Source: Candidatus Latescibacterota bacterium (GTDB taxonomy: Bacteria; Latescibacterota; UBA2968; UBA8231). From it: DNA of 64,000 bases. Shown in pieces: positions 10,235 to 49,391 of this stretch (its first letter is position 1; each line of letters starts with the position of its first letter). The position numbers and the translations under genes are program-made. Below the pieces are notes generated by a model that did not search any database, was not told the DNA's origin, and was given only the letters and a program-made list of their open reading frames with translations. The stretch is taken from the NCBI GenBank assembly GCA_965203355.1, contig OZ241889.1, positions 2,272,001 through 2,336,000 of the forward strand, in the 5' to 3' direction.

Positions 10235-10243
10235 GGATGCGAA

Positions 10244-10286: not shown

Positions 10287-10332
10287 GGGAGTTGGAAAGC
10301 TATAATTGATTTAACTGACGAGGGAGGAAGCC

Positions 10333-10536
10333 ATGAAACTGAAAGTTGTGATTCACAAAGCGGAAGAAGGTGGATATTGGGCAGAAGTACCCGCTATCCC
10401 CGGCTGCGCCACACAAGGGGAATCCTTCGAAGATCTGCTGACCAACCTCTACGAGGCTGTCGAAGGTTGTCTGTCCGTCGAGGTGCGCGACATTCCTATA
10501 TCGGAGCAGGACAAGGTGATCGAAATCGCCGTATGA
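10333..10536 (+). CDS. hicB: HicB-family antitoxin (short)
   Basis: [21 protein letters not shown]...[10 protein letters not shown] signature; GGAGG RBS. Confidence 0.9.
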
Positions 10537-10688
10537 AGGTCGTTAGCGGCAAGCAGTTTTGTAAGCTGATCGAGTCGCGGGGGTGGCAGTTGAAGCGCAT
10601 CAACGGAAGCCACTATTGCCGTGAAGGGCGGGTGTTGAGCATTGATCGGGTTCGTGCCGAAGTGCTGATTAACCAAGAGCAACTTTAG
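10533..10688 (+). pseudogene. hicA: Truncated HicA toxin fused to unrelated sequence
   Basis: [27 protein letters not shown] is a HicA N-terminus, ATGA-coupled to hicB. The expected VPxH C-terminal half is missing. Confidence 0.75.
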
Positions 10689-10730
10689 CGAAAAGCCCTG
10701 TTGAACAGGACCAACGAGGACTCCGTATAA

Positions 10731-13697: not shown

Positions 13698-13733
13698 GGG
13701 CCTTATCACTCACTGATTACCGGGAATTCGAGC

Positions 13734-29298: not shown

Positions 29299-29354
29299 TT
29301 GACTATCCAATACGCTATATTCATAATATGTAACAACCTGTAGTAAATGTTATA
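29299..29354 (+). promoter_or_regulatory. Sigma-70 promoter and possible operator of the envelope operon
   Basis: TTGACT-17 bp-CATAAT, followed by imperfect inverted repeat TGTAACA-N12-TGTTATA. Confidence 0.55.
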
Positions 29355-29425
29355 GTTTCAAAGCGATTACAGCCTCCAGTATACCATTCAGAATCTCGGC
29401 CGCTATCAAGGTGTCGGTCCTCCCC

Positions 29426-31444
29426 ATGGCATATCGTCCTACCAGCCTCCTTTTTAACCTGCTACAGTCGTTGCAGATAGTCCCTTCTTTGCCAATCCTC
29501 CTCTTGCTGCTGTCCGTGTGCTCAACTAGCGCACAGGATGTTTTTACAGTCGGTGGCGACGAACGTCCTTGGCCCAATTCTGGCACAACACCTGGAGGTG
29601 TGATCGATTTTGTAGAGCAACTGGGAACTATCGAGGAAACCAACGGCGAAAAAGTGTTCGCTGATGACCTAGATTCCCGGCAAAATTGGATCATGCCGCT
29701 GCGCTTGCGCTCGGATTTCAACATTTCGCTCGGCGTTCTCGAGCGGGGAGGTACTATAGATATCCCGGGGCTGGATGCCAGCCAGAAAAATCCAGAACAA
29801 TTGGCGGGCATGCTCAATGGCGACCACCGAGTGGCTTTTGACCGCAAGTTCGTGGCCGGCCGCATCGTGCGCAACAACGGCGTCACCATTCGCATTGACC
29901 TTGGGGCGCGCTTCGGAGTGGACCGAATCGCGTTCTATCCGAGAATGACGGCGTCGTTTCCCTTTGAGAACGAATTCATGCGCGGATATGAGTTGTTCCT
30001 CAACGATGGCTTGCCGCAAAATCTCTTTGCCAGTGGTCAGCCCATTTTCACCTCGCCAGTGCGGCGCGACCCAGACAACCGCGAGGCCAGAGTGGACGCA
30101 CAGATCAATCCCCAGTTTGTCCGCTTTTTGCAACTCAAGTCGATTTCCACCCTCGGATTTGAAATTGACGAGATAGAGGTGTACGGCCGGGGGTTCGTCC
30201 CGGTGGCCAGCTATGTGTCCAATGTGCTAGATATGGGCGGGGAGGTGGTCTGGGGTCGAATTGCTTGGAGCGAAGTAGCCGCAGGCAATAGCGCGGATTC
30301 CAATATAGAAGTCCGCGTCCGCAGCGGGCAGGATACGACGCCCGATGTCTTTTTTCGCAATGCCAATGTAGGAGGCCGGCAACCCGAATATGTGCCGACC
30401 GACAGCGAGGGTAAGGAGCTGACGGAGGAGACCTTTGAAGAACTGGCGAAAAACCAGCGAGGGCCGATCAAATCCGACACTGACAACGGCTGGGTCCAGT
30501 GGCAAGTGGTAGATAATGGCACCCCGCTGACTGTGCCGGCACCCCGGCGCTACTTCCAGTTCCGCATTGATTTCACCAATCTGAGCTTGGATGCCAGCCG
30601 TGCTGTCGCCGACTTGGGTTTCCAGTTCGCACAGCCCCCGGTTGACCGCATCGTCGCCGAAGTGGGGCCACCGCTAGCCGAGGTCGGTAAACAGACGACT
30701 TTTACGTACTTTGCCCGCATCGCCAATACTACGGGTCGGCCGGGATTTACGCGCTTTGAAATTGAAACTCCGGCCCGCATCGCGGCTATCCATTCGATAG
30801 AAATCCAAGATAGAGCGGGCAATCGCCTAGATGGAGCCGAGTTCAGCGGCGATCTGGCCGGGGTGTCTTTACCCTTGCGCGTCGGGTCGTTCTCCATAGA
30901 GGCGGTGGAGAACGACCATTTTGCCCTGAATGTACCCCGGATCAACGCCGATGGCACCCTGTTGAAAATTGTCTTTGATGCGGCCGTGTTTCGCTATGGT
31001 ACGCGTTTTCAGGGACGGGCCTTTGCCGATGCCAGCGTACAAGTGCCGTTACAGACCGAGGGCGGAGATGCTTCAGCCAAACAGGATACTGACGGGTTGC
31101 TGGTGCGGATTTCCGTGGGCTCGCAGGTGGCTGGTCCGCTGGCAATCCAGCCGCGGATTTTCACCCCCAACGGAGATGGGGCTAATGACCTGGCAGAAAT
31201 AAGCTATGCGGTTCTGCACCTGCTCGAACCATCGCCGAGCGAAGTAAATGTCTATGACTTGGCTGGTGGCCGGGTGCGACAGCTCAACTCTGCCGAGGTA
31301 CAAAACGGCCGCATTCAGCTACAGTGGGACGGTCGTGGCGATGACCATCGCCTAGTGCCGCCGGGTATCTACTTAGCGGTGGTGGAAATCCGCTCCGATC
31401 TAGAGACCGAGCGGCGTACAAACAGTGTGGCCGTGGTGTATTAA
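29426..31444 (+). CDS. Secreted protein with discoidin/galactose-binding-like domain and C-terminal FlgD-Ig ('PNGDGxND') domain; paralog 1
   Basis: Signal peptide ...LLLLSVCSTSA|QDV; IDLG...F...I.F.PR, EIEVYGRGF, FTPNGDGAND, VYDLAG, WDGR...VPPGIY, ends VVY. Start codon uncertain. Confidence 0.75.
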   Translation: MAYRPTSLLFNLLQSLQIVPSLPILLLLLSVCSTSAQDVFTVGGDERPWPNSGTTPGGVIDFVEQLGTIEETNGEKVFADDLDSRQNWIMPLRLRSDFNISLGVLERGGTIDIPGLDASQKNPEQLAGMLNGDHRVAFDRKFVAGRIVRNNGVTIRIDLGARFGVDRIAFYPRMTASFPFENEFMRGYELFLNDGLPQNLFASGQPIFTSPVRRDPDNREARVDAQINPQFVRFLQLKSISTLGFEIDEIEVYGRGFVPVASYVSNVLDMGGEVVWGRIAWSEVAAGNSADSNIEVRVRSGQDTTPDVFFRNANVGGRQPEYVPTDSEGKELTEETFEELAKNQRGPIKSDTDNGWVQWQVVDNGTPLTVPAPRRYFQFRIDFTNLSLDASRAVADLGFQFAQPPVDRIVAEVGPPLAEVGKQTTFTYFARIANTTGRPGFTRFEIETPARIAAIHSIEIQDRAGNRLDGAEFSGDLAGVSLPLRVGSFSIEAVENDHFALNVPRINADGTLLKIVFDAAVFRYGTRFQGRAFADASVQVPLQTEGGDASAKQDTDGLLVRISVGSQVAGPLAIQPRIFTPNGDGANDLAEISYAVLHLLEPSPSEVNVYDLAGGRVRQLNSAEVQNGRIQLQWDGRGDDHRLVPPGIYLAVVEIRSDLETERRTNSVAVVY

Positions 31445-31462
31445 ATTGCTAGCCAAGCAAGG

Positions 31463-34138
31463 ATGGAGATTTTGAGCAAGTGCTATCTGCTTGCCGTCGG
31501 TGCTGTTGTGTACTCGCTAGGCTGGAGTGCGCCCGCGCCGGTTGGGGCCCAAGCGTACGGCTCGCGCATGGGTAGAGTGAAGCAGGGCGGAGAGGTGAAT
31601 TTTTCTCCGCAGGGACCGGGGGTATTATTCGATGCACTGGACCCGGCGGTACGCAAATGGTACGTCCCCCAAGAACTGTATGAGGAATACCAGTGGAGAC
31701 AGTGGGAGTACTCTAACTACGCCCGCGATTTCTATCAGCGCTATGTGGACACCGCGTTGGAGGGCGATTACTTCTACGATTTCTTCGGAAACCTAGTCAC
31801 CCGGGGCTGGTTGATCTACGATTGGCAGCAAGATCGCCCCCAGCAATTCGGTAGCAGTATCCTCAAGACCAACAGGTTCAACCAATGGTTCAACCGAGTA
31901 GCCGTTTCTGCGGACCACAAGGGACAATACTATTATAGTATCACGATTGGCGATGAGATTCGCACTACCTTGACACCGATGACTTTTTCTAAACCCACAT
32001 TCAACGGAATTCAGTGGGACTTTGCCGCCGATAAGTACCAGGCTACTCTCCTGCTGGCTCGGCCTAGTCGGCCGGCAGTGGCCACTTCTCTGGATATCCC
32101 GGATCAGAAGACTAGTGTCACCAACTTGCTCGGTGGACGGGGCCTAGTCCAAGTGGGAGACTTCGTCCAAGTGGGGGCGACCTACGTGACCGCCTTCCAA
32201 GGCCAGACGCTGTTCGACGATTTCACTGGCAACCCTTTCGCGGGCGGGGCGCTGACCACCGACCAGAATGCGCTGCCCATCTCCCGCATCATTATCCGCC
32301 TGTCGGACGACTCGCCCGCAGATGGGGTGGGTGGAGCGGCCCTGTTTGACGACGAAATCATCATCGAGGATGTGGACGGCAACGTTTTCAGAGGCAGTGC
32401 CATAGGATTCGAGCCCATACGCGAGGGGGGATTCCAACGGGTGGGGTTTTTAGCCGCGGATGGGGACGAGCGCATCACGCTCACCTACGACTTTACTGAC
32501 CCTTTGTACATAGGCCCCGATCCTACGATTATTGAGAGAATATCTTTTGAATTGGTGATCTCCAACGACTACAAGGTAGAAATCACGTCAGACCGACAGA
32601 CCAACCGGGACTCACAGCCGGTCTTTTTGCTGATCGAACGGGCCCAGAACAATATCCGCGACAACTCCAACCAACGCCTGTTGCAATTCGACTATGGTCT
32701 GCCTACGGCCAATACCATCCTCGGCTTTACCTTAGAGGCCAACAAGATCAGAGGTTTTGACCTGTACTGGGAGTACGATCTCAACAGTCAATACCGCCAG
32801 TATCCCAATCTCAACCTCAAGGATCATCGCAAGGCGGTTGACTACGCTCAAGCATGGATGTTCAATCTGTCCAAGGCGTCCTATCCTTGGTTCGCCTTTC
32901 TCGAAGGGTATAGCATGGACGCGGGCTATTCTACCCGCACCTTCCTCGCGGGTACTCGGGGACAGGACGAAATCGATTACGAAGACGAAATATCCTATAT
33001 CTACGAGTTCGTCGAGGACAACGATGACCAAGACCGCCGACCGGACTGGAACCGCTTTGGTATGCTGTCGGACAATGCGGTCTTTCCGGGCTTTGACGAG
33101 AACAATGATTTCGTCTCGGATTTCAATCAGAACGATACGGAGGATCGCCAGAACTTCATTCCCGATTACGAAGAGCCCTTCCTGCGCTATCACTCGGATA
33201 GGCCCGAATATCTCTTCGGCGTTGACATGAACAACAATGGCTGGATCGACCGCTTCGAAAACGACGAAGAACCCGATTATCCCTATGGGCGGGATCACCG
33301 CGGCTACAATGTGTACGCGGGAACCCACATCGGGCCCGAGGCCCGGCTGACCGTCGGGCGTTTGCGCGAAGAATTGCTGGCGGGAGATCGCAAAAACGAA
33401 TCCACGTACCTGCTCTTCACCTACGAAAGGGATTTTGCCCAGTTGGGCCGTTTGCGGGTATTCGACCACTTCAAGCTGGTCGAGGACGACATTCCCAACA
33501 ATCTCTTTCAGTGGGTGCAGCCATCTGATTCCCGCGGCACCCAACAGCGCGTTTTCGACTTGCTGCCGGCGCGCGATACTTGGATCAACACGTCCTATGT
33601 ACAGTTCGATTTCGCGTGCCTAGGGAATCTGAATGTAATCAACAAGTTCAAGACTGAAATCTACAACCAGCGCCGGGATCAGCGCGACTTGCGCGACACG
33701 GCCAGCTTTGTCGGTCTCATCAACAAAGTCGATTACACTTTCTCAGTGGGAAACATCGAGCTTGAGCCGCGCTTTAAGAGCGAATTTTTGCGCGAACACC
33801 CGGTGCGCAAACGCGACCCAGCGCGCCGCGAGTTGACCGAGACGTTTTTTCTTCTTGCCCGCATTCCCCTGCTCTCTCATACGCTCATCGAGTTAGGACT
33901 AGAATTGTCTCGATTTGAGCAGTTCCGCGACGACGAGGGGGTCCCGGTCCATCGCGACTTAGAGCCAGATTCCTTCAGTCGCATCGTCGCGATGCAATTT
34001 AATAACTCCTCGGATTACTTGGGCTACAGGCTCCATCTACAGACGGGATTTCGCCTACAGAAGCTGACGTTTGAAAATCTGCCCTCTAGCACGACCAGCA
34101 AGATATTCATGACGGCCTATGCCGGGCTGGAACGCTAG
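31463..34138 (+). CDS. Putative outer-membrane beta-barrel protein with Asp-rich Ca-binding loops
   Basis: Signal peptide; many aromatic amphipathic beta-strands; DNDDQD, DENNDF, DMNNNG motifs; ends IFMTAYAGLER. Confidence 0.6.
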   Translation: MEILSKCYLLAVGAVVYSLGWSAPAPVGAQAYGSRMGRVKQGGEVNFSPQGPGVLFDALDPAVRKWYVPQELYEEYQWRQWEYSNYARDFYQRYVDTALEGDYFYDFFGNLVTRGWLIYDWQQDRPQQFGSSILKTNRFNQWFNRVAVSADHKGQYYYSITIGDEIRTTLTPMTFSKPTFNGIQWDFAADKYQATLLLARPSRPAVATSLDIPDQKTSVTNLLGGRGLVQVGDFVQVGATYVTAFQGQTLFDDFTGNPFAGGALTTDQNALPISRIIIRLSDDSPADGVGGAALFDDEIIIEDVDGNVFRGSAIGFEPIREGGFQRVGFLAADGDERITLTYDFTDPLYIGPDPTIIERISFELVISNDYKVEITSDRQTNRDSQPVFLLIERAQNNIRDNSNQRLLQFDYGLPTANTILGFTLEANKIRGFDLYWEYDLNSQYRQYPNLNLKDHRKAVDYAQAWMFNLSKASYPWFAFLEGYSMDAGYSTRTFLAGTRGQDEIDYEDEISYIYEFVEDNDDQDRRPDWNRFGMLSDNAVFPGFDENNDFVSDFNQNDTEDRQNFIPDYEEPFLRYHSDRPEYLFGVDMNNNGWIDRFENDEEPDYPYGRDHRGYNVYAGTHIGPEARLTVGRLREELLAGDRKNESTYLLFTYERDFAQLGRLRVFDHFKLVEDDIPNNLFQWVQPSDSRGTQQRVFDLLPARDTWINTSYVQFDFACLGNLNVINKFKTEIYNQRRDQRDLRDTASFVGLINKVDYTFSVGNIELEPRFKSEFLREHPVRKRDPARRELTETFFLLARIPLLSHTLIELGLELSRFEQFRDDEGVPVHRDLEPDSFSRIVAMQFNNSSDYLGYRLHLQTGFRLQKLTFENLPSSTTSKIFMTAYAGLER

Positions 34139-34278
34139 GCGGCTTGACCTTCGCAAGGCAGTGATACAACCCGGCGATCTGTTAGCTGAAAGGAGGAAAA
34201 AGAAACAGGCGTCGTTTCAGCCCCGATTGGGGTAGCAAGATACACCATGCTCCACTAACTATAAAGAGAGGCATTGCA

Positions 34279-35154
34279 ATGAAGAGAATCAATGAAGTGG
34301 CAATCACGTTACTGGTCTCGGCCCTTATGGTCGGCGCGGCTTTTGGCCATCAGGGGGAGATGAAGTTCATGTTCCAGTTCCCGGATCACCTGACGCCCGT
34401 GCTCGATGGCGATATGTCGGACTGGGACATTGTCGGCGATGTGTACAAAACCAAAGCCGAAACCATGTTCAACCAGTTCGGTGCGCCCATGGATCTAAGC
34501 GATTTCAACGCTTGGCTCGCTTGGGGCTACAACGTCAACGACGGCAAGGCCTATTTTGCCGCTTGGGTTGCCGACGATTTCATCAACAACACCGAGAAGT
34601 GGTCGACGACCACAGATTGGGACCACTCCGGCGGCATCTTTCGCGGCTTTGACCAAGGGGATGATTTCGAGACCCGCTGGGCCAGTGCCCAAGCCCAACG
34701 CTACGATCTAGCCGGCCCAATTTTCAGCTCGTCCGGTTATTATACCCGGATTATTGATGGCTCCAAATCTTGGGCAGGCCAGTCCCCTTACGTGGAGTGG
34801 GCCGGTAAGTTCCTTCGCGGCGACGTCAACACCCAAGAGCCCGCTGAAATGTTCGGCGAGTACACCATTGTGCCCTTTGACGATATCCATCCCGACGGCC
34901 CCGACCAGAGTGTTAGGCACAATTGGGTGGAAGGCACAATTGTCGGTATAGAGGTCAACTGGGGGGACAAGGATGCCGATCCTGGCTCCTACGACGATGC
35001 CTATTGGTCCGGTTTCGGTGGCATAGGTGCTTCCAGAGACGCCGATCAGTTCGGAGACTATTTGTTGGCACCCATCGAAGAGGGGTTGCCCGAAGCCAGA
35101 TCTACGGCAGTCGAGAACAACACTTGGGGGCAGATCAAGTCCACATTCAAATAA
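34279..35154 (+). CDS. Secreted DOMON/CBM9-like protein with C-terminal 'TAVE..TWGxIK' tail
   Basis: Signal peptide (AFG|H), PVLDGDMSDW, Asp/Trp/Gly-rich, ends STAVENNTWGQIKSTFK; AGAGG RBS. Confidence 0.7.
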   Translation: MKRINEVAITLLVSALMVGAAFGHQGEMKFMFQFPDHLTPVLDGDMSDWDIVGDVYKTKAETMFNQFGAPMDLSDFNAWLAWGYNVNDGKAYFAAWVADDFINNTEKWSTTTDWDHSGGIFRGFDQGDDFETRWASAQAQRYDLAGPIFSSSGYYTRIIDGSKSWAGQSPYVEWAGKFLRGDVNTQEPAEMFGEYTIVPFDDIHPDGPDQSVRHNWVEGTIVGIEVNWGDKDADPGSYDDAYWSGFGGIGASRDADQFGDYLLAPIEEGLPEARSTAVENNTWGQIKSTFK

Positions 35155-35197
35155 AGCCGATTCGACAGCCTGTTATAGACGTCGCAGGATGTTTTCA

Positions 35198-35237
35198 GGC
35201 GGGGTTTACAGGGGACTGTAAATCCCGCCGTTCTCTT
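35198..35237 (+). terminator. Intra-operon hairpin (partial terminator or mRNA stabiliser)
   Basis: GGCGGGGTTTACAG-ggga-CTGTAAATCCCGCC then GTTCTCTT. Confidence 0.65.
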
Positions 35238-35266
35238 GGTTGGCGACCAAGCAAAGGAGGCACTGG

Positions 35267-37117
35267 GTGCGACAGGTACTGATTATAGTCCTGACCGTGT
35301 TGGGGATGGGAGCGGGCTATTGGGCCGAGGCGCGCCAATTTTACCAACTGGGGGGCCGTGTTGGAAATCCTTGGCGTGAAAGCGGCACCCTGACTTTCAC
35401 CGACGTGGCAAAAGTGCCGGGTGCCATCCGCCCGTTCAATGCCGAAAGCGGCGAGAATCTGATTGCCTCAATGGGTGAGCGAAATGGCGACATTACCAGT
35501 TTAGTAAGCATTTATACCCTGCCGGCGAATTGGCTAGACGACCGCGTACTGATAGTAGATGGCGATTCGAATACAGCGTTTGTGCATCCGCCGCGCATCA
35601 ATTTCTTTCGCGGCCCCGGATTCTTCTATACCACGCCGCTGTTCTTCGATCTGGGGGCACCATTCCCCATTGAAGAGATCCGCTTTGCTCCCCGCGCCGA
35701 TCACCCAGGGCATAAGATCCGCCAGTTTAGGCTTTATATCAACGATGGCCGGGAAAAGAGCAAAGACGAAAAAGGAAATCTCATCTGGACCTTGGTTCGC
35801 GACGAGCAAGACAACTTGAGCCCGGCGGTCGAACTGGATATCGAACCCCAGATAGCACGCCACGTCTATCTCCACCCCTTGGAGGTAGGTGAGACTTGGG
35901 AAGTGGCTGAGTTCGAAGTGTACGGTCAGGGGTTTGTCCCCCAAGCCTCATTTTTGTCCGACCCGATTGATCTGGGACGAGCATCCAGTCTGGGACGCAT
36001 CTGGTGGAGTGGCCAACTCGATTTAGGAGCGAAAATAGTCGTTCAGAGCCGCAGCGGCAGTGATGATCAGCCCGAGGTTTACTGGCGCAAGACCGGAGTG
36101 GGTGGAGAGGAAGTGCCATTCGGGGTCAATGGTCGGCCCATGAGCCGCCAAGAGTATGAAGCCATGCCCCAGAACGTACAGGGGAGCATTACCGAGGATC
36201 TGGAAAACTGGAGCGTATGGCACACGTATGAGTATGCGGACGGGCTTGCCGGCACTCAGATTCTTTCTCCCAGCCCCCGGCAGTATATGCAGTTACACAT
36301 CGCCTTTTTTTCCGCCATATTGGCGGGGGGACAGGTTGACTCACTGTTCTTTGAATTTTCCCAACCCCCGGTAGTCTCCGCGGTGATTGGCGAAATCTCC
36401 CCTCCTTTTGTAGAGGCGGCTGACCCGGTTCAGTTCACCTATGCGGTGCGAACCCGCTTGGAGGCAGAACAATCGGGTTTTAATGTTCTCGAGGTGCGCA
36501 CGCGCGCTCGTCTAGAGGCCGTCCACGAGGTGCGCATCAACCGCGAAGTAGTCGATTTTACCCTGAGTTTCGATTCGGCCAATCCCCACCAGTTCGCCGT
36601 CCAATTTGATCGCATTGACCAAGACCAGACCCTGCTAGAAGTGGATTTTGACGCCCGAGTATTCAACTATGGAACGACCTTCAGCGGCGCGGTGTCGGAT
36701 GCGGACAGCGACGCAGTACCCCAGAGCGTGATTCCCGGAGATGCTACGAGCGAGTTGCTGAGCGACGCCTTGAACGTCCGCACCCCGCTCAAGGGTAATC
36801 TGCTCAGCACCGTGCAGGTAACTCCCAATCCGTTTTCACCCAATGGAGATAGCGTCAACGATCAAGTGCAGTTTTCCTATACATTACTGCGCCTAACCGA
36901 TGTCGTGCCCCTTAAGACGGAAATCTACACGCCAGCGGGAAACCGCGTTCGCACCTTGGGCCGCGAGGAGGGGCGTAGTGCGATCTATCAAACTGCTTGG
37001 GACGGGCGGGATGACCAAGGTGAGTTAGTAGCTCCAGGATTGTATATTTACCGCGTCGTGGTAGAAGCAGGCAGCGGTCAGGAGGAGCGGCTGGGACCTA
37101 TCGCTTTGGTGTACTAA
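35267..37117 (+). CDS. Secreted FlgD-Ig-tailed protein; paralog 2
   Basis: AGGAGG RBS and GTG; signal peptide (AEA|RQF); FDLG...IRFAPR, EFEVYGQGF, FSPNGDSVND, WDGR...VAPGLY, ends LVY. Confidence 0.75.
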   Translation: MRQVLIIVLTVLGMGAGYWAEARQFYQLGGRVGNPWRESGTLTFTDVAKVPGAIRPFNAESGENLIASMGERNGDITSLVSIYTLPANWLDDRVLIVDGDSNTAFVHPPRINFFRGPGFFYTTPLFFDLGAPFPIEEIRFAPRADHPGHKIRQFRLYINDGREKSKDEKGNLIWTLVRDEQDNLSPAVELDIEPQIARHVYLHPLEVGETWEVAEFEVYGQGFVPQASFLSDPIDLGRASSLGRIWWSGQLDLGAKIVVQSRSGSDDQPEVYWRKTGVGGEEVPFGVNGRPMSRQEYEAMPQNVQGSITEDLENWSVWHTYEYADGLAGTQILSPSPRQYMQLHIAFFSAILAGGQVDSLFFEFSQPPVVSAVIGEISPPFVEAADPVQFTYAVRTRLEAEQSGFNVLEVRTRARLEAVHEVRINREVVDFTLSFDSANPHQFAVQFDRIDQDQTLLEVDFDARVFNYGTTFSGAVSDADSDAVPQSVIPGDATSELLSDALNVRTPLKGNLLSTVQVTPNPFSPNGDSVNDQVQFSYTLLRLTDVVPLKTEIYTPAGNRVRTLGREEGRSAIYQTAWDGRDDQGELVAPGLYIYRVVVEAGSGQEERLGPIALVY

Positions 37118-37126
37118 ATAGAAGAC

Positions 37127-38866
37127 ATGAGCAACAGAAAACCATGGATTTGGCAAGAATGCAAGTGGGTACTCATGTGGAGTCTCGCGGCGTGTTCTCC
37201 AGGGGCAGAGGTCGTCCTCGAACCGGATGTGGTGGCGCGCATTGATTCCACGTCTATCTCGGTTGCCGAAATGCGCGATTTTGTCGTCCAGATGCCCCAG
37301 TCCTTGCGCCTGCCGGGACCGGGCGACCCCGTGCGCCAGCACTATCTGCGCAGCCTGCTGGGCAAGTACCTGCTCGTACTGGAGGCCAAAGAGCGGGGAT
37401 TGGATACGGCCCAAGTGGTACAGACTAAAGTGATGCACTACTGGCGCCAGCACTTGGGCGACACCTATCGCCAGCTCGTACTGATACCCAACGTGCAGGT
37501 TTCCGAGGAGGAAATACGCGCCTTTTTCGCCCAAAGTGCCCTAGACCGCAAGCGCCAGCTAGCAGGCATTCTGGTGGAAGAAGACAGCACCGCCCAGCAA
37601 ATCTATGCGCAACTCGCAGCGGGCCGGGATTTTGCCCAACTAGCCGCCGAATACACCATAGACGAACGGTCGGCTTCCCAAGGAGGCGTACTGGGATTTA
37701 CCGATCTGGAGCAGGCCCGCAGGTTGCAGATTCCAGACGAGTTGTTTCGCAGCCTGCCGAACGGACAGCTATCCCCGATCCTGACCATGGGCTCGCGCTA
37801 CCAGATCGTGCGTTTCCTCCAGGACCAGCCCGTTCCACTAGCAGAGAAACGACAGCAGATTCGCGATATACTCTACGAACGCAAGCGACTAGAGCAGGAA
37901 GTCGCGGAAATTGCGGTCCTCACCCGCAAGTTGGACGTGCAGCTAGTGCCAAAGGGCTTAGCGCTTCTACTGAATAAAGCGGCACTCCACACCCGGGTGC
38001 GGCGCGCCGATCTGACCGTCGAGGAGGTGGAGCAGCCCCTCTTTGTCTATAAGGGAGGGCATATCTCGCTGGGAGATTACCTCAATGCTCTGTGGAAGGA
38101 TATGCGGGCCTTGTCCGGCTGGGGCCTACGGGACAGTGCCGAGGTGGTTGGTGCCGCGAGGGAACTGGTTTTGATACCGGCTTTGTTGGCAGAGGCGGCG
38201 CAGCGGGCTGGGTTGGCAGAGACGGCGGATGGACAACAGCGATTAGCGGAAATACGCATAGAATTCATGATCAAACAGTTACGCCAAGAAAGGGTCATTG
38301 ATCGATCCGAGGCGAGCCGGGAGGAAGCGAGGGATTTTTACGAGAACAATGAGGAATTGTTCAAAGAACCGACCCAATACATTGTCGTTGAAGTGCTGGT
38401 CAAGACCAAATCAGAAGCTACTGGTTTGTTGCGCGCCCTCGAACAAGGGGCGACCCTCGGAGCGCTCGCGCAAAAGTACACCATCCGCCCAGGTATGCGG
38501 GAAGAAGACGGCTTGATGCATCTAGGCGAGTACGAGCGTTTGACCCAACCGCAGCTCTTCAAAGCAGTAAAGGTGGCCGAGCTCGACAAAATCACCGGCC
38601 CGGTGCCCGTTGAAGACGGGTACAGCATTTTCAAAGTTCTCAACCGTCAGGGGGGAGGTCTAGTCCCCTTTTTTCAAGCCGAGAAAAAGGCCCGGGCCTT
38701 GGTGCGCGGACAGAAGCGAGAGCAACTTTTTGAAGAGCTGATTGACGACCTACTGGACAAGCACAAAGAGCGGATCGCCGTATCTGACAGCGCGTTGGCG
38801 GCGGCTCTGCCCGATACGTTCCTGCAGTACCATACATGGGAAGCCCCAACCAAGGGCGATGATTAG
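37127..38866 (+). CDS. SurA/PrsA-like lipoprotein with two PpiC (parvulin) domains
   Basis: LAAC lipobox; VVARID...ISVAE; FAQLAAEYTID...GGVLG and LAQKYTIR...GLMHL rotamase segments. Confidence 0.8.
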   Translation: MSNRKPWIWQECKWVLMWSLAACSPGAEVVLEPDVVARIDSTSISVAEMRDFVVQMPQSLRLPGPGDPVRQHYLRSLLGKYLLVLEAKERGLDTAQVVQTKVMHYWRQHLGDTYRQLVLIPNVQVSEEEIRAFFAQSALDRKRQLAGILVEEDSTAQQIYAQLAAGRDFAQLAAEYTIDERSASQGGVLGFTDLEQARRLQIPDELFRSLPNGQLSPILTMGSRYQIVRFLQDQPVPLAEKRQQIRDILYERKRLEQEVAEIAVLTRKLDVQLVPKGLALLLNKAALHTRVRRADLTVEEVEQPLFVYKGGHISLGDYLNALWKDMRALSGWGLRDSAEVVGAARELVLIPALLAEAAQRAGLAETADGQQRLAEIRIEFMIKQLRQERVIDRSEASREEARDFYENNEELFKEPTQYIVVEVLVKTKSEATGLLRALEQGATLGALAQKYTIRPGMREEDGLMHLGEYERLTQPQLFKAVKVAELDKITGPVPVEDGYSIFKVLNRQGGGLVPFFQAEKKARALVRGQKREQLFEELIDDLLDKHKERIAVSDSALAAALPDTFLQYHTWEAPTKGDD

Positions 38867-38888
38867 TAAATGGATAGGACAATAAGGT

Positions 38889-41573
38889 ATGGAACAGTAT
38901 TCGATGATTTCGGAGCCGATCGCGAGGCGAGCGGGTCTTTTGTCCACGGTGCTTTATTTTGTAGCCCTTTTGCTCCTTGTGGCTCTAAACGGGGTATGGG
39001 CCCAGTCGAGGGGTTACAGTCTGGGTGCGGACCGGGTGACGGTGCGGACCCAGGCGCATTGGCAGGCTTGGGGTTTTCCGCGGGATATGGTGACGATAAT
39101 GCCATCTGGCTCGGTGCAGTCCAGATTCATACAAGTACCGCACAACGCCATGTTGAATGCGGCCGACTTTAGCTATCCCATTGATGGCAGTTTGCGCGAT
39201 CAATACGCCAATTCGTTTCAAGGCGCAAACAACGCGCTGCTGGCACACGGCGGTATCAAAAGGGCTGGTTCAAATCCGCCGCTAGCCGAGCGAGCCATTG
39301 ACGCCGATCCGACTACCGCTTGGGAGCCGGATCCGGCCGATCCGCTGCGGGACTGGGTGTTGGAGATTGATCTTGGCCGCTTGGTGTCGGCTACCAAGGT
39401 CGTTGTACGCTTTGCCGAAGAAGGGGATCCGTTTCTGCAATTCAGGGTGCATTCGGCCGGGGGGCAAAATCCCTTCGGCACGGCCGACCGCAGCGGTGCC
39501 TTGGACTACACCCTAGTCGGCAGTACCACCCAGCCCAATCGCACCCAGCGAGTCTTTGAGTTCGACCTCGCACCACTGGGCACCTATACAGAAGAGTGGA
39601 CCGGCCGCATTGTGCAGTACCTGCGCATCGCGGTCACGGCCACTAATGGCGCGCGGGCGCAACAGATCGCTGCCGAGGATTATCAGGCGTTGGCAGCAGA
39701 GAACCGAGGTGCTGTGGAATACGTCTGGAAAATCGCCGGCGAAGAGCGGCTAGTACTGGCCGAGCGTTACGACCAGTTGCCACTCGAGCAGCAGGGCGGG
39801 ATGCGCTATTACCGCCGTGAACGGCCTCAACTCGCCGAGGTTGAGGTTTGGACTGTGGGCGAGAATATTGCCTTGGGGATCGTAGAGCGCGGCGGCAGTT
39901 TACGCGACGTCAATCCCAACTCTTCGCCCGAACTGGCCGTTGATGGCAACATGCGCACCGAGTGGCAGAGCATGGTTTACTTTCCCACCGGGGAGACCGC
40001 CGAGTGGGGTCTGTTGAACGTGGATTTGGGCTCCCACTTTATGGTCCATGCCGTGCGCATCATCACCCGCGTTGGAGGACGAAACCTGATTGGTTATCTA
40101 TTGCGCGGTTCGGACGGCTCGCTGGCACCCGATGGCAGTTTAATTTGGGAGGAATTGAGTGGTGAGACGCGGCAGCTAAACCAGAATACGCGGTTGTTTG
40201 AGGATCGCTTTGCGCCGCGCCTTGTGCGTTTTCTCGAATTCCGCAACCTAGATATTGCCCGCCGCACTAGGGCCCATGAAGGGCATCGGATACTGAGCAC
40301 GGTGCCTGAAATCCAAGTCTTCGCCAATGGGTACCTACCGATTCTCGAGATGACTTCCGACCTTATCGATCTGGGGAGTTCCAAGACGCTGACTACCATC
40401 GAATGGGAAGCTAACACCCCTTCGGGCACAGCAGTGGAAATCCGCACCCGGACGGGAAACGATCTGCGCGAAGTACAGCGCTATTTCAAAAAAGACGGTA
40501 CGGAAGTAGCTAACAAAGAAGAATACGAGGCTCTGCCGTCCTTCTTCAGAGGCGAGATCCTGACCGAGTTCTTGCCGGGACCGGGTTGGAGCAACTGGAG
40601 TCAAGCCTACGTCAAATCGGGCGAAGTCATACGTTCCCCCAATCCCCGGCGTTATATGATGATCCAGACGAGACTACTCAGCGAAGACGCGGTCGCCGCC
40701 GCCAGCCTACAGTCGATCCAAGTCCATTTCACAGCACCGCTGGTAGAGTACATTGCCGGGGAAATAGAGCCCAAGCGGAATGTCCCCCTCGGCGAACTCA
40801 CCGATTTTGACCTCTTCATCCGTCCCTCCTTCACGGCTCAGAGTCCGGGATTCGACCGCATCCGTCTCATAGTGCCTTCGCAAGCGAATATCGAACTGCG
40901 CCAAGTGAGTTTGGGAGACGAAAGCGAATTTGTCGCTGGCAACGAGGAAATATTTGCCGAAGTGGCAAAAGACCGTTTTGAGAATGGAGCGGGGGCGGCG
41001 TTGGAATGGACCAAGGTGGCAAGTGATACCCTGCAACTCGGCTTGCCAAGGGTGCTGCGGCAAGGCCATGCGGATATTGTGCGGATATCTTTTTCGTCGC
41101 GTGTTTTCCTGAGCGGCGCCACTTTTGCAGCCGAGGTTGGGCACTCAGCGCAAGCGGGTAACTGGCAGAGGGTGGATCCAGCGGACCCGGTAGGAGACGA
41201 ATTGGCCGCGGGTGAGGGGTTGACAGTATTGACGACCGCCCGCCGCGGGCCGCTCGGAACCATTGAGGTAGAGCCCGGCACTTTTACCCCCAATGGCGAT
41301 GGCGTCAACGACGCGGCTGTCTTTTCGTTTTCCGTGCTCAAAGTCAATGTAGCCCGGCAAGTAGCGGTGGATTTCTACGACTTGGCAGGCAGGCAGGTGA
41401 GGCGTCTTGCTGAGCAGCGCCATATAGCAAACGGGCGGTATCGTCTGGCTTGGGACGGACGAGATGAAGAGGGAACTTTAGTTTCCCCGGGCCTTTACCT
41501 CGCTCGTATTGAGGTGGCCGACGACGCGAGGGATGCCAACTTGGCTGTCCGCCTAGTGGGGGTGGCGTATTGA
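38889..41573 (+). CDS. Secreted protein with two discoidin-like domains and FlgD-Ig tail; paralog 3
   Basis: Signal peptide (VWA|QS); AIDADPTTAW...EIDLG and AVDGNMRTEW...VDLG; FTPNGDGVND, FYDLAG, WDGR...VSPGLY, ends VAY. Confidence 0.75.
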   Translation: MEQYSMISEPIARRAGLLSTVLYFVALLLLVALNGVWAQSRGYSLGADRVTVRTQAHWQAWGFPRDMVTIMPSGSVQSRFIQVPHNAMLNAADFSYPIDGSLRDQYANSFQGANNALLAHGGIKRAGSNPPLAERAIDADPTTAWEPDPADPLRDWVLEIDLGRLVSATKVVVRFAEEGDPFLQFRVHSAGGQNPFGTADRSGALDYTLVGSTTQPNRTQRVFEFDLAPLGTYTEEWTGRIVQYLRIAVTATNGARAQQIAAEDYQALAAENRGAVEYVWKIAGEERLVLAERYDQLPLEQQGGMRYYRRERPQLAEVEVWTVGENIALGIVERGGSLRDVNPNSSPELAVDGNMRTEWQSMVYFPTGETAEWGLLNVDLGSHFMVHAVRIITRVGGRNLIGYLLRGSDGSLAPDGSLIWEELSGETRQLNQNTRLFEDRFAPRLVRFLEFRNLDIARRTRAHEGHRILSTVPEIQVFANGYLPILEMTSDLIDLGSSKTLTTIEWEANTPSGTAVEIRTRTGNDLREVQRYFKKDGTEVANKEEYEALPSFFRGEILTEFLPGPGWSNWSQAYVKSGEVIRSPNPRRYMMIQTRLLSEDAVAAASLQSIQVHFTAPLVEYIAGEIEPKRNVPLGELTDFDLFIRPSFTAQSPGFDRIRLIVPSQANIELRQVSLGDESEFVAGNEEIFAEVAKDRFENGAGAALEWTKVASDTLQLGLPRVLRQGHADIVRISFSSRVFLSGATFAAEVGHSAQAGNWQRVDPADPVGDELAAGEGLTVLTTARRGPLGTIEVEPGTFTPNGDGVNDAAVFSFSVLKVNVARQVAVDFYDLAGRQVRRLAEQRHIANGRYRLAWDGRDEEGTLVSPGLYLARIEVADDARDANLAVRLVGVAY

Positions 41574-42334: not shown

Positions 42335-42415
42335 TGTAGGATTGCCCTACCCGGTCTCTAGCGGTACTTTTTTAGCCGAACTCGCCTTTGTTTTTATCCT
42401 CTCAGGAGATTGCTC

Positions 42416-43897
42416 ATGTTAGACCCTCAGTACCTGCTCGGCGACGAAGAGATGCAGCAGTTCATAGCCGAGGGGTATCTCACGCTCAAATCCTCGCTGC
42501 CGGCCTCCCTCCACCAAGACATCTACCAACGCACCGAAGAGGTCTTTGCCAAGGAGGGCAATCCCGGCAACAACATTCTGCCCCGCCTCCCGGCATTGCA
42601 GCAGGTCTTTGACGATCCGGTCGTGCGCGGTGCTCTCACTTCGGTGGTGGGGCCGGATTATATCATGCACGCCCACCGCCACTGCCACCTGAATCGAGCG
42701 GATAGCGAGGGCGGTGGCTGGCACAAGGACAGCTATTGGGGCTATAACAAGGTGCGCTATCACCGCAATCGCTGGGTGATGATTTTCTACTACCCGCAAG
42801 ACGTCACCTTGGAAAACGGCCCCACCGCGGTCATGCCCGGTACGCACTACTACAACGGCCGCGCCGACAACGAGCAAGACGAGTGCCACCTGCCCGTTCT
42901 CGGCGCGGCGGGCACCTGCACCTTGGTGCATTTTGACCTGTGGCACCGGGCCATGCCCAACCGCTCGGCGACCAACCGCTATATGATGAAATTCCAGTTT
43001 ACCCGCCTCCGCGAGCCGAGCCGGCCCAGTTGGAACATCCAAGCCCCGGGCTGGCCAGCCAACGGGTCCGCGCCCTCTACCAAGCATCGCGTCGTGTGGT
43101 CGCGCATATGGGATTGGCACGCGGGCGGCCAAAGTCGCGCCGAGGTCAGCGGGCAAATTGAGCAACTGATCGGATCCCTCAACGGAACATTGGAACAACG
43201 CTTGGCAGCGACCGATGCCCTCAGTGCGTTTGGGGAAAAGGCCGTTCCGGCGCTAGAGGCGTTACTCGGTGCGCTGGGCGACGAAGCCGAGCCGGTGCGT
43301 CTCAATGCGGCGTATGCACTGGGTGCGGTGGGGAAGGCTGCCGTAGGCCCGTTGATTGCAGCCCTCGGCGATGAGCGCGAGCCGGTGCGTCTCAATGCGG
43401 CGTATGCGCTGGGTGCGGTGGGGGAAGAAGCGGTGGACGCCTTGGTTGCGGCCCTGGGCGATGAGCGGGCCCACGTGCGGGGTTTTGCGGCGTATGCGCT
43501 GGGCGACATGGGGGCGCGGGCAGGTGCTGTGGCTGCGGCCGCCTTGGGCGCGTTGCTCGACGACCCGGCCGCCTGGGTGCGGCGCAACGTGGCCGAGGCC
43601 CTTGGGACTATTGCACTGAATCCGGCCGCCTCGGTGCCGGCGTTGGCTGTGCTGCTGGCGGACGCGGACGAGCAGGTGCGCTTTAACGCCGCGTACGCGT
43701 TGGCCCACTTTGGTCCGGCGGCCGCCGCGGCCATAGATGCGTTGGCCGCGGCCCTCAGCGACGAGAATCGCTACGTCCAAGGGCACTGCACGGCCGCCTT
43801 GCAACAGATTGGTACGCCCGAAGCCCAAGGCGTATTGCTGCACCACTTGACCACGGCGCGCTGGTGTCCCATAACGACCAAGGAAACTACGTTCTGA
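42416..43897 (+). CDS. PhyH-family Fe(II)/2OG dioxygenase fused to HEAT (PBS-lyase) repeats
   Basis: WHKD, GPTAVMPGTH, LWHR facial-triad motifs; repeated VRLNAAYALG units; AGGAG RBS. Confidence 0.88.
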   Translation: MLDPQYLLGDEEMQQFIAEGYLTLKSSLPASLHQDIYQRTEEVFAKEGNPGNNILPRLPALQQVFDDPVVRGALTSVVGPDYIMHAHRHCHLNRADSEGGGWHKDSYWGYNKVRYHRNRWVMIFYYPQDVTLENGPTAVMPGTHYYNGRADNEQDECHLPVLGAAGTCTLVHFDLWHRAMPNRSATNRYMMKFQFTRLREPSRPSWNIQAPGWPANGSAPSTKHRVVWSRIWDWHAGGQSRAEVSGQIEQLIGSLNGTLEQRLAATDALSAFGEKAVPALEALLGALGDEAEPVRLNAAYALGAVGKAAVGPLIAALGDEREPVRLNAAYALGAVGEEAVDALVAALGDERAHVRGFAAYALGDMGARAGAVAAAALGALLDDPAAWVRRNVAEALGTIALNPAASVPALAVLLADADEQVRFNAAYALAHFGPAAAAAIDALAAALSDENRYVQGHCTAALQQIGTPEAQGVLLHHLTTARWCPITTKETTF

Positions 43898-48039: not shown

Positions 48040-48152
48040 CCGCTTGCGTCTGGCCGACAGGGATGGGTTTTAGCCGACTGGTTTTGTACTGTGCAGGCCC
48101 AGTGTAAATCTGTAGCCTAAACTTGCCTTTATCGAGGTCCTTCAAATTCGCA

Positions 48153-48743
48153 ATGACTACGGATTTACTGCCCGATTTCATCCGCGAGTACTACGAAATC
48201 CACGAGTGGAAACACGCCTGCGCGATACTGAACGAAGACTTCCCCGAAGAGTGGAACGACATCATTTCGGTCTTGCAGGAGTTTCGTCTAAGAAAAAGCT
48301 GGATAGTGAAACCCGGTGGCGGGAAATCTGCGATTTCGTCTTTTATTGATAATTACCTATATGAAAGAGACTGGGAAGAAAAGGAATTCTCGACGAGGGT
48401 CGTAGTGGACGAAGATATCCGCGACACACCAACGCACAAAATAGACTGTTTCCGCAATCGAGTTGCTCTCGAAATAGAATGGAATAACAAGGACCCATTC
48501 TACGACCGGGACTTGAACAACTTCAGACTGCTTTTTGATCTTCGGGCGATCAGCGTTGGCGTCATCATAACCCGGTGCGATGGACTTCAAGACCTCTTCA
48601 ATGCCCTCAACAAAGGGCTGTCTTACGGGGCATCAACAACGCACATGAGCAAGTTACTTCCGCGAATCGAAGGAGGCGGAGGGGGTGGCTGTCCCATCTT
48701 GGCGTTTGGTATCTCGAAAAAGCTGTATGTAGAGGATGAGTAA
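48153..48743 (+). CDS. BglII/BstYI-like restriction endonuclease
   Basis: THKIDC...VALEIEWNNKDPFYDRDL PD-(D/E)xK-like core; abuts the MT-A70 gene. Confidence 0.85.
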   Translation: MTTDLLPDFIREYYEIHEWKHACAILNEDFPEEWNDIISVLQEFRLRKSWIVKPGGGKSAISSFIDNYLYERDWEEKEFSTRVVVDEDIRDTPTHKIDCFRNRVALEIEWNNKDPFYDRDLNNFRLLFDLRAISVGVIITRCDGLQDLFNALNKGLSYGASTTHMSKLLPRIEGGGGGGCPILAFGISKKLYVEDE

Positions 48744-49391
48744 ATGACCGCAGCGACCGATTTGCTCGACGCGGTCGGCGGGCAGAGGTTTTCGACCATT
48801 CTCGCCGATCCGCCGTGGCAGTTCCACAATAGAACCGGCAAGATGGCACCGGAACACCGGCGTTTGTCTCGATATGCGACGATGGCCTTGCAGGACATTG
48901 AGAGCTTGCCTGTCGAATCAATTGCGACGGAAACCGCGCATCTATACTTGTGGATACCCAATGCGCTGTTGGCCCACGGACTGCAAGTGATGGATAGCTG
49001 GGGATTCAACTACAAGACGAACATCATCTGGTACAAGGTGAGAAAGGATGGCGGGCCGGACCGGCGTGGCGTGGGATTCTACTTTCGCAATGTGACGGAA
49101 ATTATCCTATTCGGCATCCGAGGCCAGAACGCCAGAACGCTACAGCCCGGGCGTAGCCAAGAAAACATCATCGTCTCGCAAAAGCGAGAACACAGCAGGA
49201 AGCCAGACGAGCAGTACGAGTTGATCGAGGCATGCAGTCCGGGTCCCTTCATTGAGTTGTTTGCACGGGGGCCGCGAAAAGGCTGGTTCGGATGGGGTGA
49301 TCAGGCCGACGAGTACGATCCGGGCTGGGCTACGTACTCGAACCACTCGCAGACCGCTGCCGCACCCACTGCGCAGCTTCCCCTGCTTTGA
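48744..49391 (+). CDS. MT-A70-family (METTL3/Ime4-like) adenine methyltransferase
   Basis: ILADPPW, LYLW, WGF.YKT...W.K, HSRKP, IELFAR, WGDQ. Confidence 0.92.
   Translation: MTAATDLLDAVGGQRFSTILADPPWQFHNRTGKMAPEHRRLSRYATMALQDIESLPVESIATETAHLYLWIPNALLAHGLQVMDSWGFNYKTNIIWYKVRKDGGPDRRGVGFYFRNVTEIILFGIRGQNARTLQPGRSQENIIVSQKREHSRKPDEQYELIEACSPGPFIELFARGPRKGWFGWGDQADEYDPGWATYSNHSQTAAAPTAQLPLL

Follow-up and report, generated by a model that had tools for sequence, protein, structure and literature searches.

A recurrent six-gene envelope module of the Latescibacterota, tentatively read as a glycan-binding array on a dedicated outer-membrane protein

Among the Bacteroidota, type-B T9SS (type IX secretion system) cargo proteins are described as binding PorP-like barrels that are often encoded beside them (PMC9143113; PMC12618676). 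Here we describe a six-gene cluster in a 64,000-nucleotide stretch of DNA (hereafter the window; contig OZ241889.1, positions 2,272,001 to 2,336,000) from a Candidatus Latescibacterota bacterium, which shares several features with such cargo-barrel pairs and departs from them in others. The Latescibacterota are widespread, uncultured members of the FCB (Fibrobacterota-Chlorobiota-Bacteroidota) group, to which the Bacteroidota also belong, and are predicted to be saccharolytic in a genome analysis of the phylum (PMC4454575). The cluster had been singled out in an earlier note, made from the letters alone, as a candidate undescribed secretion, surface-assembly or uptake system; the observation underlying that proposal is confirmed here, and its interpretation is partly supported. 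We read the region as one copy, of the gene order called type I below, of a conserved, multi-copy envelope module of the Latescibacterota that may form a glycan-binding array on a dedicated outer-membrane protein, the best-supported but still tentative reading, to which we assign a probability of roughly 0.42. As the earlier note had supposed, no description of such a module was found in print, the broader literature hits having been judged from their listings, and no publication was found that links Latescibacteria with T9SS.

Six open reading frames (ORFs) on the forward (+) strand, named A1, B, C, A2, D and A3 in their order of occurrence, span positions 29411-41573 of the window and lie where they had first been placed:

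29411-31444, + strand: A1, 677 amino acids (aa); signal peptide, discoidin-like domain, beta-rich middle, type-B-like C-terminal immunoglobulin-like (Ig) domain
31463-34138, + strand: B, 891 aa; secreted beta protein, poor in Cys and rich in Asp and aromatic residues; candidate large outer-membrane beta-barrel
34279-35154, + strand: C, 291 aa; signal peptide, beta sandwich with the predicted fold of carbohydrate-binding module family 9 (CBM9), Pro-rich linker, disordered conserved tail
35240-37117, + strand: A2, 625 aa; paralog of A1
37127-38866, + strand: D, 579-aa lipoprotein; two PrsA/PEB4-like chaperone-parvulin units
38889-41573, + strand: A3, 894 aa; third paralog, in which the discoidin-like domain is duplicated

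From A1 to A3 the genes are separated by 18, 140, 85, 9 and 22 nucleotides (nt), and the G+C content of the cluster (0.55-0.59) lies slightly under that of its flanks (0.60-0.64). Alignment of the region upstream of A1 with those of seven relatives places the conserved ATG at 29426, which gives an A1 of 672 aa. Export signals had been claimed for all six products; a hydropathy scan of the six flagged only four of them, A1, C, A2 and A3, as having a hydrophobic stretch at the N-terminus, and the claim is weaker for B and D, whose signals were recognised by eye.

To place the cluster among its relatives, one genome per species was scanned with B, which returned at least 889 confirmed B-like stretches; the best 80 of these gave 59 loci (L001-L059), almost all in metagenome-assembled genomes labelled Latescibacterota or 'Gemmatimonadetes', with single Handelsmanbacteria and Planctomycetota records. 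The ORFs of these loci were searched with the window proteins and with profiles built from the matches. In 45 of the 47 well-flanked loci (at least 7 kb to the left and at least 8 kb to the right of B), A1, A2, A3, B, C and D all occur within 9.5 kb, the exceptions being L028 and L029. The gene directly upstream of B is A1 in 55 of 56 loci, and in 58 of 59 the A, B and C genes are all on the same strand. The genes do co-occur elsewhere, as had been anticipated. They are found in three gene orders, namely type I, that of the window (A1-B-C-A2-D-A3), type II (C-A2-A3-A1-B-D) and type III (D, C-A1-B-A2-A3), and these three gene orders and the five B clades are independent. Modules also recur within a genome: chromosome OZ220690.1 carries four, from four B clades, and several other chromosomes carry two or three loci each. 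Judged by sequence identity between module types, B is the slowest-evolving and most conserved part of the module (51-54%), with A1-A3 at 31-36%, C at 27-30% and D at 25-29%.

A1, A2 and A3 had been described as three paralogous, non-identical subunits, and both parts of this description are borne out. Their paralogy is far above chance (BLASTP: A1/A2, 35% identity, E 5e-83; A1/A3, 27%, E 1e-43; A2/A3, 27%, E 3e-46), and all elements of the ordered motif set listed for them are invariant columns of their alignment (DLG 163-165, E254/V257/G261, S270/D274/G276, R304/G306, P376/P378/R379/Y381, E417/P420, F584/P586-D589/N592-D593, W639-R642/V649/P651-G652/Y654, Y677). In a quick maximum-likelihood tree of 44 A proteins, taken from the window and 15 of the 59 loci chosen by us, A1, A2 and A3 each form one group (SH-aLRT 94, 86 and 100, respectively) and are distinct, anciently separated types. 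Within each of these groups the same type I, II and III subclades recur in parallel; the triplication of A therefore predates the duplication of the module, and the module has been inherited as a unit. One A1 ortholog (L057:7673-9841) carries NHL/beta-propeller repeats inserted ahead of its C-terminal domain, and the A scaffold therefore tolerates domain swaps.

The following domains of the A proteins bear on their possible function:

31151-31441, + strand: C-terminal Ig domain of A1 (aa 581-677), terminus VVY
36821-37114, + strand: C-terminal Ig domain of A2 (aa 528-625), terminus LVY
41277-41570, + strand: C-terminal Ig domain of A3 (aa 797-894), terminus VAY
A3 aa ~118-229 and ~327-443, + strand: the two discoidin-like copies of A3

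The last ~90 residues of all three proteins reach the cut-off of FlgD_ig (PF13860, 27 bits), with scores of 31.1 (A1), 28.4 (A2) and 27.1 (A3), as do 23 of 32 orthologs from other loci. With CHU_C (PF13585), the type IX secretion signal domain, which has the same cut-off, A1 scores 32.3, A2 24.5 and A3 22.8, so that only A1 reaches it, together with 21 of the 32 orthologs. An A1 profile matched the Ig domain of FlgD in the PDB (3osv, E 1.7e-8) and, weakly, PorU (E 0.23). Tyr is the C-terminal residue of 157 of the 158 A-family proteins that are complete at the 3' end (the remaining one ends in Phe), and 149 of the 158 have PN[GN]D within their last 110 residues. Taken together as sequence features, these place the A C-terminal domain in the T9SS-sorting/FlgD-Ig superfamily, where it is type-B-like. 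The discoidin-like domain is duplicated within A3 (E 1e-5; the extra copy is N-terminal), and discoidin-family matches at E<=1e-3 were obtained for 14 of the 32 A orthologs, nine of them above the cut-off of F5_F8_type_C or F5_F8_type_C_2.

The sorting-domain profile also matched 12 flanking non-A ORFs in related loci, at lower scores. Eight of these were scanned, six being metallophosphatases and two LVIVD proteins; FlgD_ig was found in all eight and Por_Secre_tail in seven, and their C-terminal domains (CTDs) carry a (Y/F)PNP(F/S)N motif and a terminal Arg. Two of the flanking proteins were compared with the type-A sorting-domain model TIGR04183 (cut-off 23), and both pass (31.6 and 27.2). 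Two CTD classes thus coexist in the lineage, a type-A class on such cargo and a PNGDGxND/Tyr class on the A family only, which is the same split as that between types A and B in the Bacteroidota. The module had also been taken to be self-contained. This is not established: with classical type-A CTD cargo present in related genomes, the module may also require a T9SS-like exporter of general function. Within the 64-kb window no SprA/Sov, PorV, PorU or GldK-N genes were found. In more distant relatives, an LVIVD-repeat protein and a purple-acid-phosphatase-like enzyme were observed directly upstream of type I modules (L020:2337-6653, L025:2599-6779, L022:4936-6903, L024:5176-7056), both of which carry a classical T9SS type-A sorting domain with Arg as its last residue.

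Among the described systems that come closest are the T9SS type-B pairs of the Bacteroidota, for example SprB-SprF and PG1035-PorP. Like their cargo, the A proteins combine a Sec signal with a PNGDGxND Ig-like C-terminal domain that matches CHU_C, the A1 gene adjoins that of a dedicated outer-membrane-type protein, B, and type-A CTDs sit on ordinary enzymes in the same lineage. The differences are that B, with ~890 aa, is unrelated to PorP/SprF, barrels of ~300 aa, that the A proteins fall short of the curated type-B model and have an invariant terminal Tyr, and that each module combines a foldase and a CBM9-fold protein with a fixed set of three paralogous cargo types. Should the type-B-like reading be true, the pairing of a sorting domain with a dedicated barrel would extend beyond the Bacteroidota, with a completely different barrel.

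B, the presumed partner in this arrangement, has no Pfam match at E<=10 and no NCBIfam match at E<=0.1. It has at least 1203 homologues, in at least 786 clusters at 50% identity, without family annotation or solved relative; among the 120 homologues listed, identities are 50-96% and lengths ~640-930 aa (859-932 aa for all but one), none has a Pfam domain and all are named hypothetical. Since the module is present in several copies, up to four on one chromosome, and the B family is large and unannotated, the module is a major unannotated piece of the envelope of the whole phylum. The composition of B (14% aromatic residues, 9% Asp, 0.2% Cys) is combined with 23 amphipathic beta segments, compared with 12.5 +/- 3 in shuffled sequences, and with no transmembrane helix. 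An outer-membrane beta-barrel is a likely, though as yet unproven, fold for B. Two features of its acidic part can be located:

33005-33298, + strand: acidic loop region of B (aa 515-612)
33224-33259, + strand: EF-hand-like loop DMNNNGWIDRFE of B (aa 588-599)

The calcium-binding-like loops that had been noticed in the 891-aa protein are indeed present. They are rich in Asp and Asn and include one canonical EF-hand-like loop, DMNNNGWIDRFE, within a conserved acidic stretch; across 66 B relatives D588 and D596 never vary, and conservation is at least 90% for N590, N592 and E599.

Links from B to described families are distant. In the Atlas, the neighbours of the B homologue P0026 are all unnamed, and the nearest named cluster is the TonB-receptor-like barrel family DUF6029 (0.89), which we treat as a lead only. 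Sub-threshold matches to SlpA_C (PF21620; 16-30 bits against a cut-off of 35) were found in 9 of 43 distant B relatives, none of the 43 having an NCBIfam match. One distant relative, P0200, is 32% identical to B (E 1.1e-54), and precomputed PF21620 annotations, present on 41 of the 120 P0200 relatives listed, are confined to the P0200 clade; the B and P0200 clades align over 830 columns, which is not independent evidence because the B alignment used contains P0200. This distant B-like clade (P0200, P0321-P0439), whose members have ~980 aa and are 32% identical to B, was also seen to be large: the listing suggests a massive expansion, with 13 of 120 listed clusters perhaps from one genome.

SlpA of Deinococcus radiodurans, the only family linked to the B superfamily, is described as a homotrimer of 30-stranded barrels with lumen insertions held by Asp metal sites, and has been proposed to be a scaffold and possibly an S-layer anchor (PMC9388160). 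Both it and B have acidic, metal-site-like insertions; B itself has no match to SlpA_C at E 10, nor an S-layer homology (SLH) domain or coiled coil, and the SlpA chains in the PDB were not found by B profiles. From this link an envelope coat can be envisaged, in which B would be an abundant SlpA-like scaffold, A1-A3 (with C) a surface layer and D an assembly foldase. The scaffold role proposed for the SlpA trimer, the invariance of the acidic loops of B, the multi-domain beta architecture of the A proteins and the apparently high expression of C are all consistent with a coat. We nevertheless regard it as improbable, given that B lacks any Pfam match to an SLH domain or coiled coil, that a single coat sits poorly with a genome's four or more diverged modules, and that the hairpin and leader described below mark C, and not A or B, as the abundant product.

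D had been described as a two-parvulin, SurA-like lipoprotein, and this assignment holds at the level of the PrsA/PEB4/SurA class. Pfam matches above cut-off were obtained to Rotamase_2 (64.6 bits), Rotamase (57.9) and Rotamase_3 (47.7), with two stretches each for Rotamase_2 and Rotamase, and the two halves of the protein are similar in sequence (E 1e-4). Among solved structures the nearest relatives of D are PrsA (6vj6, E 1.9e-7) and PEB4/Cbf2 (3rfw, E 2.1e-6). The SurA equivalog PRK10770 is missed by a wide margin (20.6 against 394), as are all NCBIfam equivalog cut-offs. A lipobox, LAAC, was recognised by eye, and a lipobox-like motif occurs in 36 of 48 D orthologs. D is therefore comparable to PrsA, PEB4 (Cbf2), HP0175 and SurA in its parvulin domains, and to PrsA in its lipoprotein anchoring; it differs from them in being a tandem of two chaperone-parvulin units tied to one gene module. 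A peptidyl-prolyl isomerase lipoprotein is bound to the T9SS translocon SprA, which offers a parallel.

C had been regarded simply as cargo, a view that has to be corrected. By sequence it has no Pfam match at E<=10, no NCBIfam match and no match to a solved structure. Its AlphaFold2 model is a beta sandwich (predicted local distance difference test, pLDDT, 80.6; predicted template-modelling score, pTM, 0.78) with a disordered tail (aa 273-291, pLDDT <50). The leading Foldseek matches of the model are to CBM9 (7nwn, E 6.8e-9; 7nwo, E 2.2e-8; 1i82_A, E 2.5e-7), with a probability of 1.00 and TM-scores, normalised by target, of 0.66-0.74 (0.74 for 1i82_A) at an identity of only 14-15%, and a further match is to a Bacteroides putative carbohydrate-binding protein. 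On the evidence of this predicted model, C has the CBM9 fold. The Pfam family CBM9_1 (PF06452) is matched by 2 of 28 C relatives (best E 0.0029) and not by the window C at E<=10, and Atlas neighbours of the C homologue P0277 have CBM9_1 in 13%, 37% and 94% of their members. Compared with CBM9-2 of Thermotoga Xyn10A (1i82), the Caldicellulosiruptor module 7nwn and the wider DOMON superfamily, which C resembles in predicted fold, C is free-standing, has ~100 extra residues, and bears a near-invariant N-terminal His and a conserved disordered tail:

34348-34350, + strand: codon of C His24, the mature N-terminus as predicted by rule
35104-35151, + strand: C tail TAVE..TWGxIKSxF (aa 276-291)

A small-x-small site followed by His24, behind a hydrophobic core, is present in 105 of 110 unique C-family members, the cleavage site being predicted by rule and not by a trained predictor; of the five exceptions three are truncated sequences, a fourth has Gln, and the fifth retains the His with Thr at -1. 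In 28 diverse, aligned C members the His24 column is invariant (28/28), as are D43, W49, Y92, D99, D113, H116, Q140, P170, E194, D230, D232 and D260, and Y142 is conserved in at least 90%. An N-terminal His is the hallmark of the copper sites of lytic polysaccharide monooxygenases (LPMOs), CopC and YcnI, and by analogy with these it suggests a histidine-brace or haem site in C. C is not a member of a known LPMO, CopC or YcnI family, since it has no Pfam match at E<=10.

These residues raise the possibility of cofactor chemistry at the cell surface, with C a metal or haem protein that would act in redox reactions on a bound polymer or in metal acquisition, its site being either a copper site of the histidine-brace kind, made up of the N-terminal His and His116, or haem b as in DOMON-type subunits. 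The rule-predicted exposure of His24 in nearly all relatives and the invariance of H116, D113, Q140 and others speak for it, as do the Foldseek matches that follow CBM9, namely the haem b subunits NxrC (E 3.4e-3) and ethylbenzene dehydrogenase gamma (E 3.6e-3) and the cytochrome domain of cellobiose dehydrogenase (E 0.018). Set against these are the missing Pfam match to the copper families, the fact that plain sugar binders, the CBM9 modules, head the fold matches, and a pLDDT of only ~69 near His24; no publication was found that links the histidine brace with CBM9. We consider such chemistry distinctly unlikely; if C does hold a metal or haem at its N-terminal His, this would be a cofactor site new to the CBM9 fold.

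The other end of C had been characterised by a TWGxIK tail, and the window protein does end in TWGQIKSTFK. Of 58 C proteins, 55 keep the pattern TAVE..(T/S/G)WGx(I/V/L)K..F. WGxIK was considered as a general sorting tag and dropped as unsupported in this sample: outside the C family, just 2 of the 2576 ORFs with a length of 100 aa or more have it near the end; one of these two is a truncated second C, and the tail is nearly confined to the C family in these loci.

Taken together, the components can be arranged in the following sequence of events. All six products would be exported by Sec, as the four signals found by hydropathy and the two found by eye suggest. In the periplasm the lipoprotein D, whose family assignment is the firm part of this step, would fold or escort its beta-rich partners. 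A1, A2 and A3 would be non-interchangeable subunits, each with one or more discoidin/CBM32-like lectin domains and further beta domains, which may reach the surface by means of the type-B-like Ig domain with its invariant terminal Tyr and may stay there non-covalently on B through the same domain, much as type-B cargo does on PorP/SprF. We infer this delivery and anchoring from the domain class, the strict adjacency of A1 to B and the co-inheritance of the genes. B would be the slowly evolving core, a big beta-barrel, as its presumed fold implies, stabilised by calcium-binding loops. The CBM9-fold C would be made separately and, if its expression is as high as it appears, probably in excess, and would join the array or be released, possibly by way of its flexible conserved tail. 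Diverged modules in one genome, with their conserved core and variable periphery, would then serve different ligands.

Several results weigh against a glycan-binding array of this kind. The earlier note had likened PNGDGxND to the T9SS type-B sorting domain; the type-B-like character and the superfamily membership stand, and a strict type-B assignment does not, as not one of the 35 A proteins reaches TIGR04131, the curated model for type B (cut-off 35). Scores were 20.3 for A1 and 16.5 for A3 of the window (A2 is not listed) and 28.8 for the best ortholog, with matches at E<=1e-4 in 10 of 32 orthologs, and one A1 ortholog passes the type-A sorting-domain model instead. The lectin assignment is affected in a similar manner: within the window the discoidin match is under the cut-off for A3 (25.6 against 28.2) and absent for A1 and A2, and the CBM32 match of the A1 profile in the PDB has an E of only 0.056. 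As for B, no solved structure in the PDB is matched by its profiles, and the SlpA_C matches of its distant relatives, themselves below the cut-off, span just ~75-100 of the 656 model positions. The beta-segment count was dropped as a barrel test; it cannot tell a barrel from a sandwich, because the soluble A1 shows the same enrichment. Coevolution within B (mean-field direct coupling analysis of 351 sequences, effective number 197) was rejected as non-specific, parallel and antiparallel ladders being about equally enriched (1239 and 1315 at z>5) and the top pairs being gap artefacts. B had further been compared with PorP/SprF and SusC, and this finds no support, no PorP/SprF, SusC, Plug or usher signature being detected in Pfam at E<=10. 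Finally, the 45 loci with a complete module are not independent events, because many are close relatives (B is 91-96% identical in L002-L015).

An alternative in which the same proteins serve uptake is suggested by some of the related loci. A protein of ~660 aa with DUF6785 and DUF6784 and 10-15 hydrophobic segments is encoded beside type II and III modules in 23 of the 47 well-flanked loci, within ~5 kb of the module and in two different gene orders (for example L046:17299-19281, L048:17310-19304, L050:17818-19803 and L032:17166-19154, with 19 more loci), and is absent from the type I module of the window. It has no PDB or NCBIfam match, and no publication on DUF6785 was found. The module might accordingly be a capture-and-import machine analogous to SusC/D/E/F, in which A1-A3 and C would bind a polymer, B would be the conduit, and in the sister modules the DUF6785/DUF6784 protein would carry the substrate across the inner membrane. 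As with SusC/D/E/F, there are many diverged copies per genome, and a large conserved outer-membrane component is combined with variable CBM-like beta-sandwich proteins; the distant B-like clade appears to be expanded even further, and the lectin- and CBM9-type domains also fit. The 2015 genome analysis of the phylum assumed only non-specific porins for uptake across the outer membrane (PMC4454575). Unlike the Sus systems, the module has neither a TonB-dependent receptor nor a SusD-like TPR lipoprotein, and A and C are not lipoproteins.

More specifically, B carries no Plug, TonB-dependent receptor or TonB-box signature, the module of the window has no linked inner-membrane protein, DUF6785 has no literature, PDB or NCBIfam match that would give it a function, and neither in the window nor in the related loci are glycoside hydrolases, sugar-catabolic genes or regulators seen in consistent linkage. 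Import is on balance doubtful. A joint scheme goes further and is a long shot: B, as a new family of giant outer-membrane barrels, would both anchor the three lectins through their type-B-like sorting domains and import substrate towards the DUF6785/DUF6784 protein, itself a new family of inner-membrane transporters, and the abundant C would be a cofactor protein of a new class that attacks or senses the polymer with a histidine-brace copper or haem site at its N-terminal His, the whole being a phylum-specific, self-contained counterpart of a polysaccharide utilization locus with parts unrelated to SusC and SusD.

In a few loci (six ORFs) a PMT_2 (GT-C) glycosyltransferase fused to TPR repeats adjoins B; it does not occur in the window. 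Examples directly after B are L027:6465-8663, L028:9965-12199, L029:12570-14753 and L057:12558-14732, and this gene arrangement hints that module proteins may be glycosylated in these lineages.

A glycan-binding array that includes an abundant C raises the question of how the genes are expressed. The signals considered in the window are as follows:

29299-29327, + strand: sigma-70-like match TTGACT-17-CATAAT upstream of A1; weak
29329-29354, + strand: candidate operator, an inverted repeat (TGTAACA-N12-TGTTATA) lying between A1 and the promoter-like match
34188-34196, + strand: GAAAGGAGG, candidate 5' mRNA stabiliser; Shine-Dalgarno-like, 83-91 nt before the C start
35198-35229, + strand: perfect 14-bp GC-rich hairpin directly 3' of C; candidate attenuator or 3' stabiliser

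A single promoter had been assumed for all six genes. The site at 29299 is an ordinary consensus match: sigma-70-like matches in the window do not exceed those in shuffled sequences (5 found, 7.4 expected), and the site is not conserved in the upstream regions of seven relatives. The cluster is probably no simple one-promoter operon, because C has expression signals of its own. The inverted repeat has no second copy in the window, and no match arose in any of 100 shuffles; among the 59 loci it recurs only in L002, the closest relative. No terminator was detected downstream of A3 (z +1.5).

Upstream of C, GAAAGGAGG occurs as a single copy in the window, with no start codon within 12 nt behind it. 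Of 58 unique regions upstream of C, 35 have AAAGGAGG at a distance of 67-103 nt from the gene, compared with an expectation of ~0.008 per 160 nt; the element is only partly conserved within type I. We take this element to resemble the STAB-SD mRNA stabiliser of Bacillus thuringiensis cry3A. Downstream of C, the hairpin region has a folding energy of -41.2 kcal/mol for a 96-nt stretch (z -4.5) and is unique in the window; having a single copy there, it was dropped as a candidate repeated element. In 96% of 56 unique loci the 90 nt that follow the C stop contain a hairpin of <= -18 kcal/mol, and the same threshold is reached after A1 in 5%, B in 10%, A2 in 8%, D in 10%, A3 in 27% and DUF6785 in 4%. 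Its sequence varies by module type, and in types II and III a T-run follows it. These sequence features suggest that the C mRNA is separately stabilised and highly expressed within the cluster in all module types; if so, the Shine-Dalgarno-like leader and the 3' hairpin would be a clean example of differential expression within a cluster, in a lineage without genetics.

In chaperone-usher systems the major pilin gene is set apart from the minor ones in a like manner, and an usher is about the size of B. A fibre of this kind would have C as the major subunit, B as the platform, D as the chaperone and A1-A3 as minor or tip adhesins. It would explain why C alone has a strong 3' hairpin (96%, against 5-10% after A1, B, A2 and D) together with a leader element, and would suit the conserved C-terminal peptides of C and A, with their terminal or near-terminal aromatic residue. 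We grade it as unlikely in the extreme, since none of the six proteins has an usher, PapD-like or pilin family match in Pfam, C is predicted by its model to fold as a complete CBM9 sandwich and not as an incomplete Ig fold awaiting a donor strand, and D is a parvulin foldase.

The module is embedded in unrelated housekeeping genes. Upstream lie an opposite-strand nitrite/sulfite reductase and a 378-aa protein without a family, and downstream a shikimate kinase, a PhyH-HEAT protein and an M20 peptidase. Neither an Rfam family nor a tRNA gene was found anywhere in the 64-kb window.

Further observations were made elsewhere in the window. Positions 5428-15446 hold a probable defence island, with ResIII helicase-like and Schlafen AlbA_2/HATPase_c_4 proteins together with an N6_N4 DNA methylase and a GmrSD endonuclease; G+C falls to 0.53 at 4-6 kb and 10-12 kb. 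A BglII-like restriction endonuclease beside an MT-A70 methylase (48123-49391) coincides with a G+C content lowered to 0.55. Two unusual fusions involve HEAT repeats, one with a PhyH dioxygenase (42410-43897) and one with a major facilitator superfamily (MFS) transporter (61772-63991). Positions 52652-55273, unlinked to the module, encode a protein of 873 aa that has numerous TPR repeats and, at its C-terminus, a TonB_C domain.

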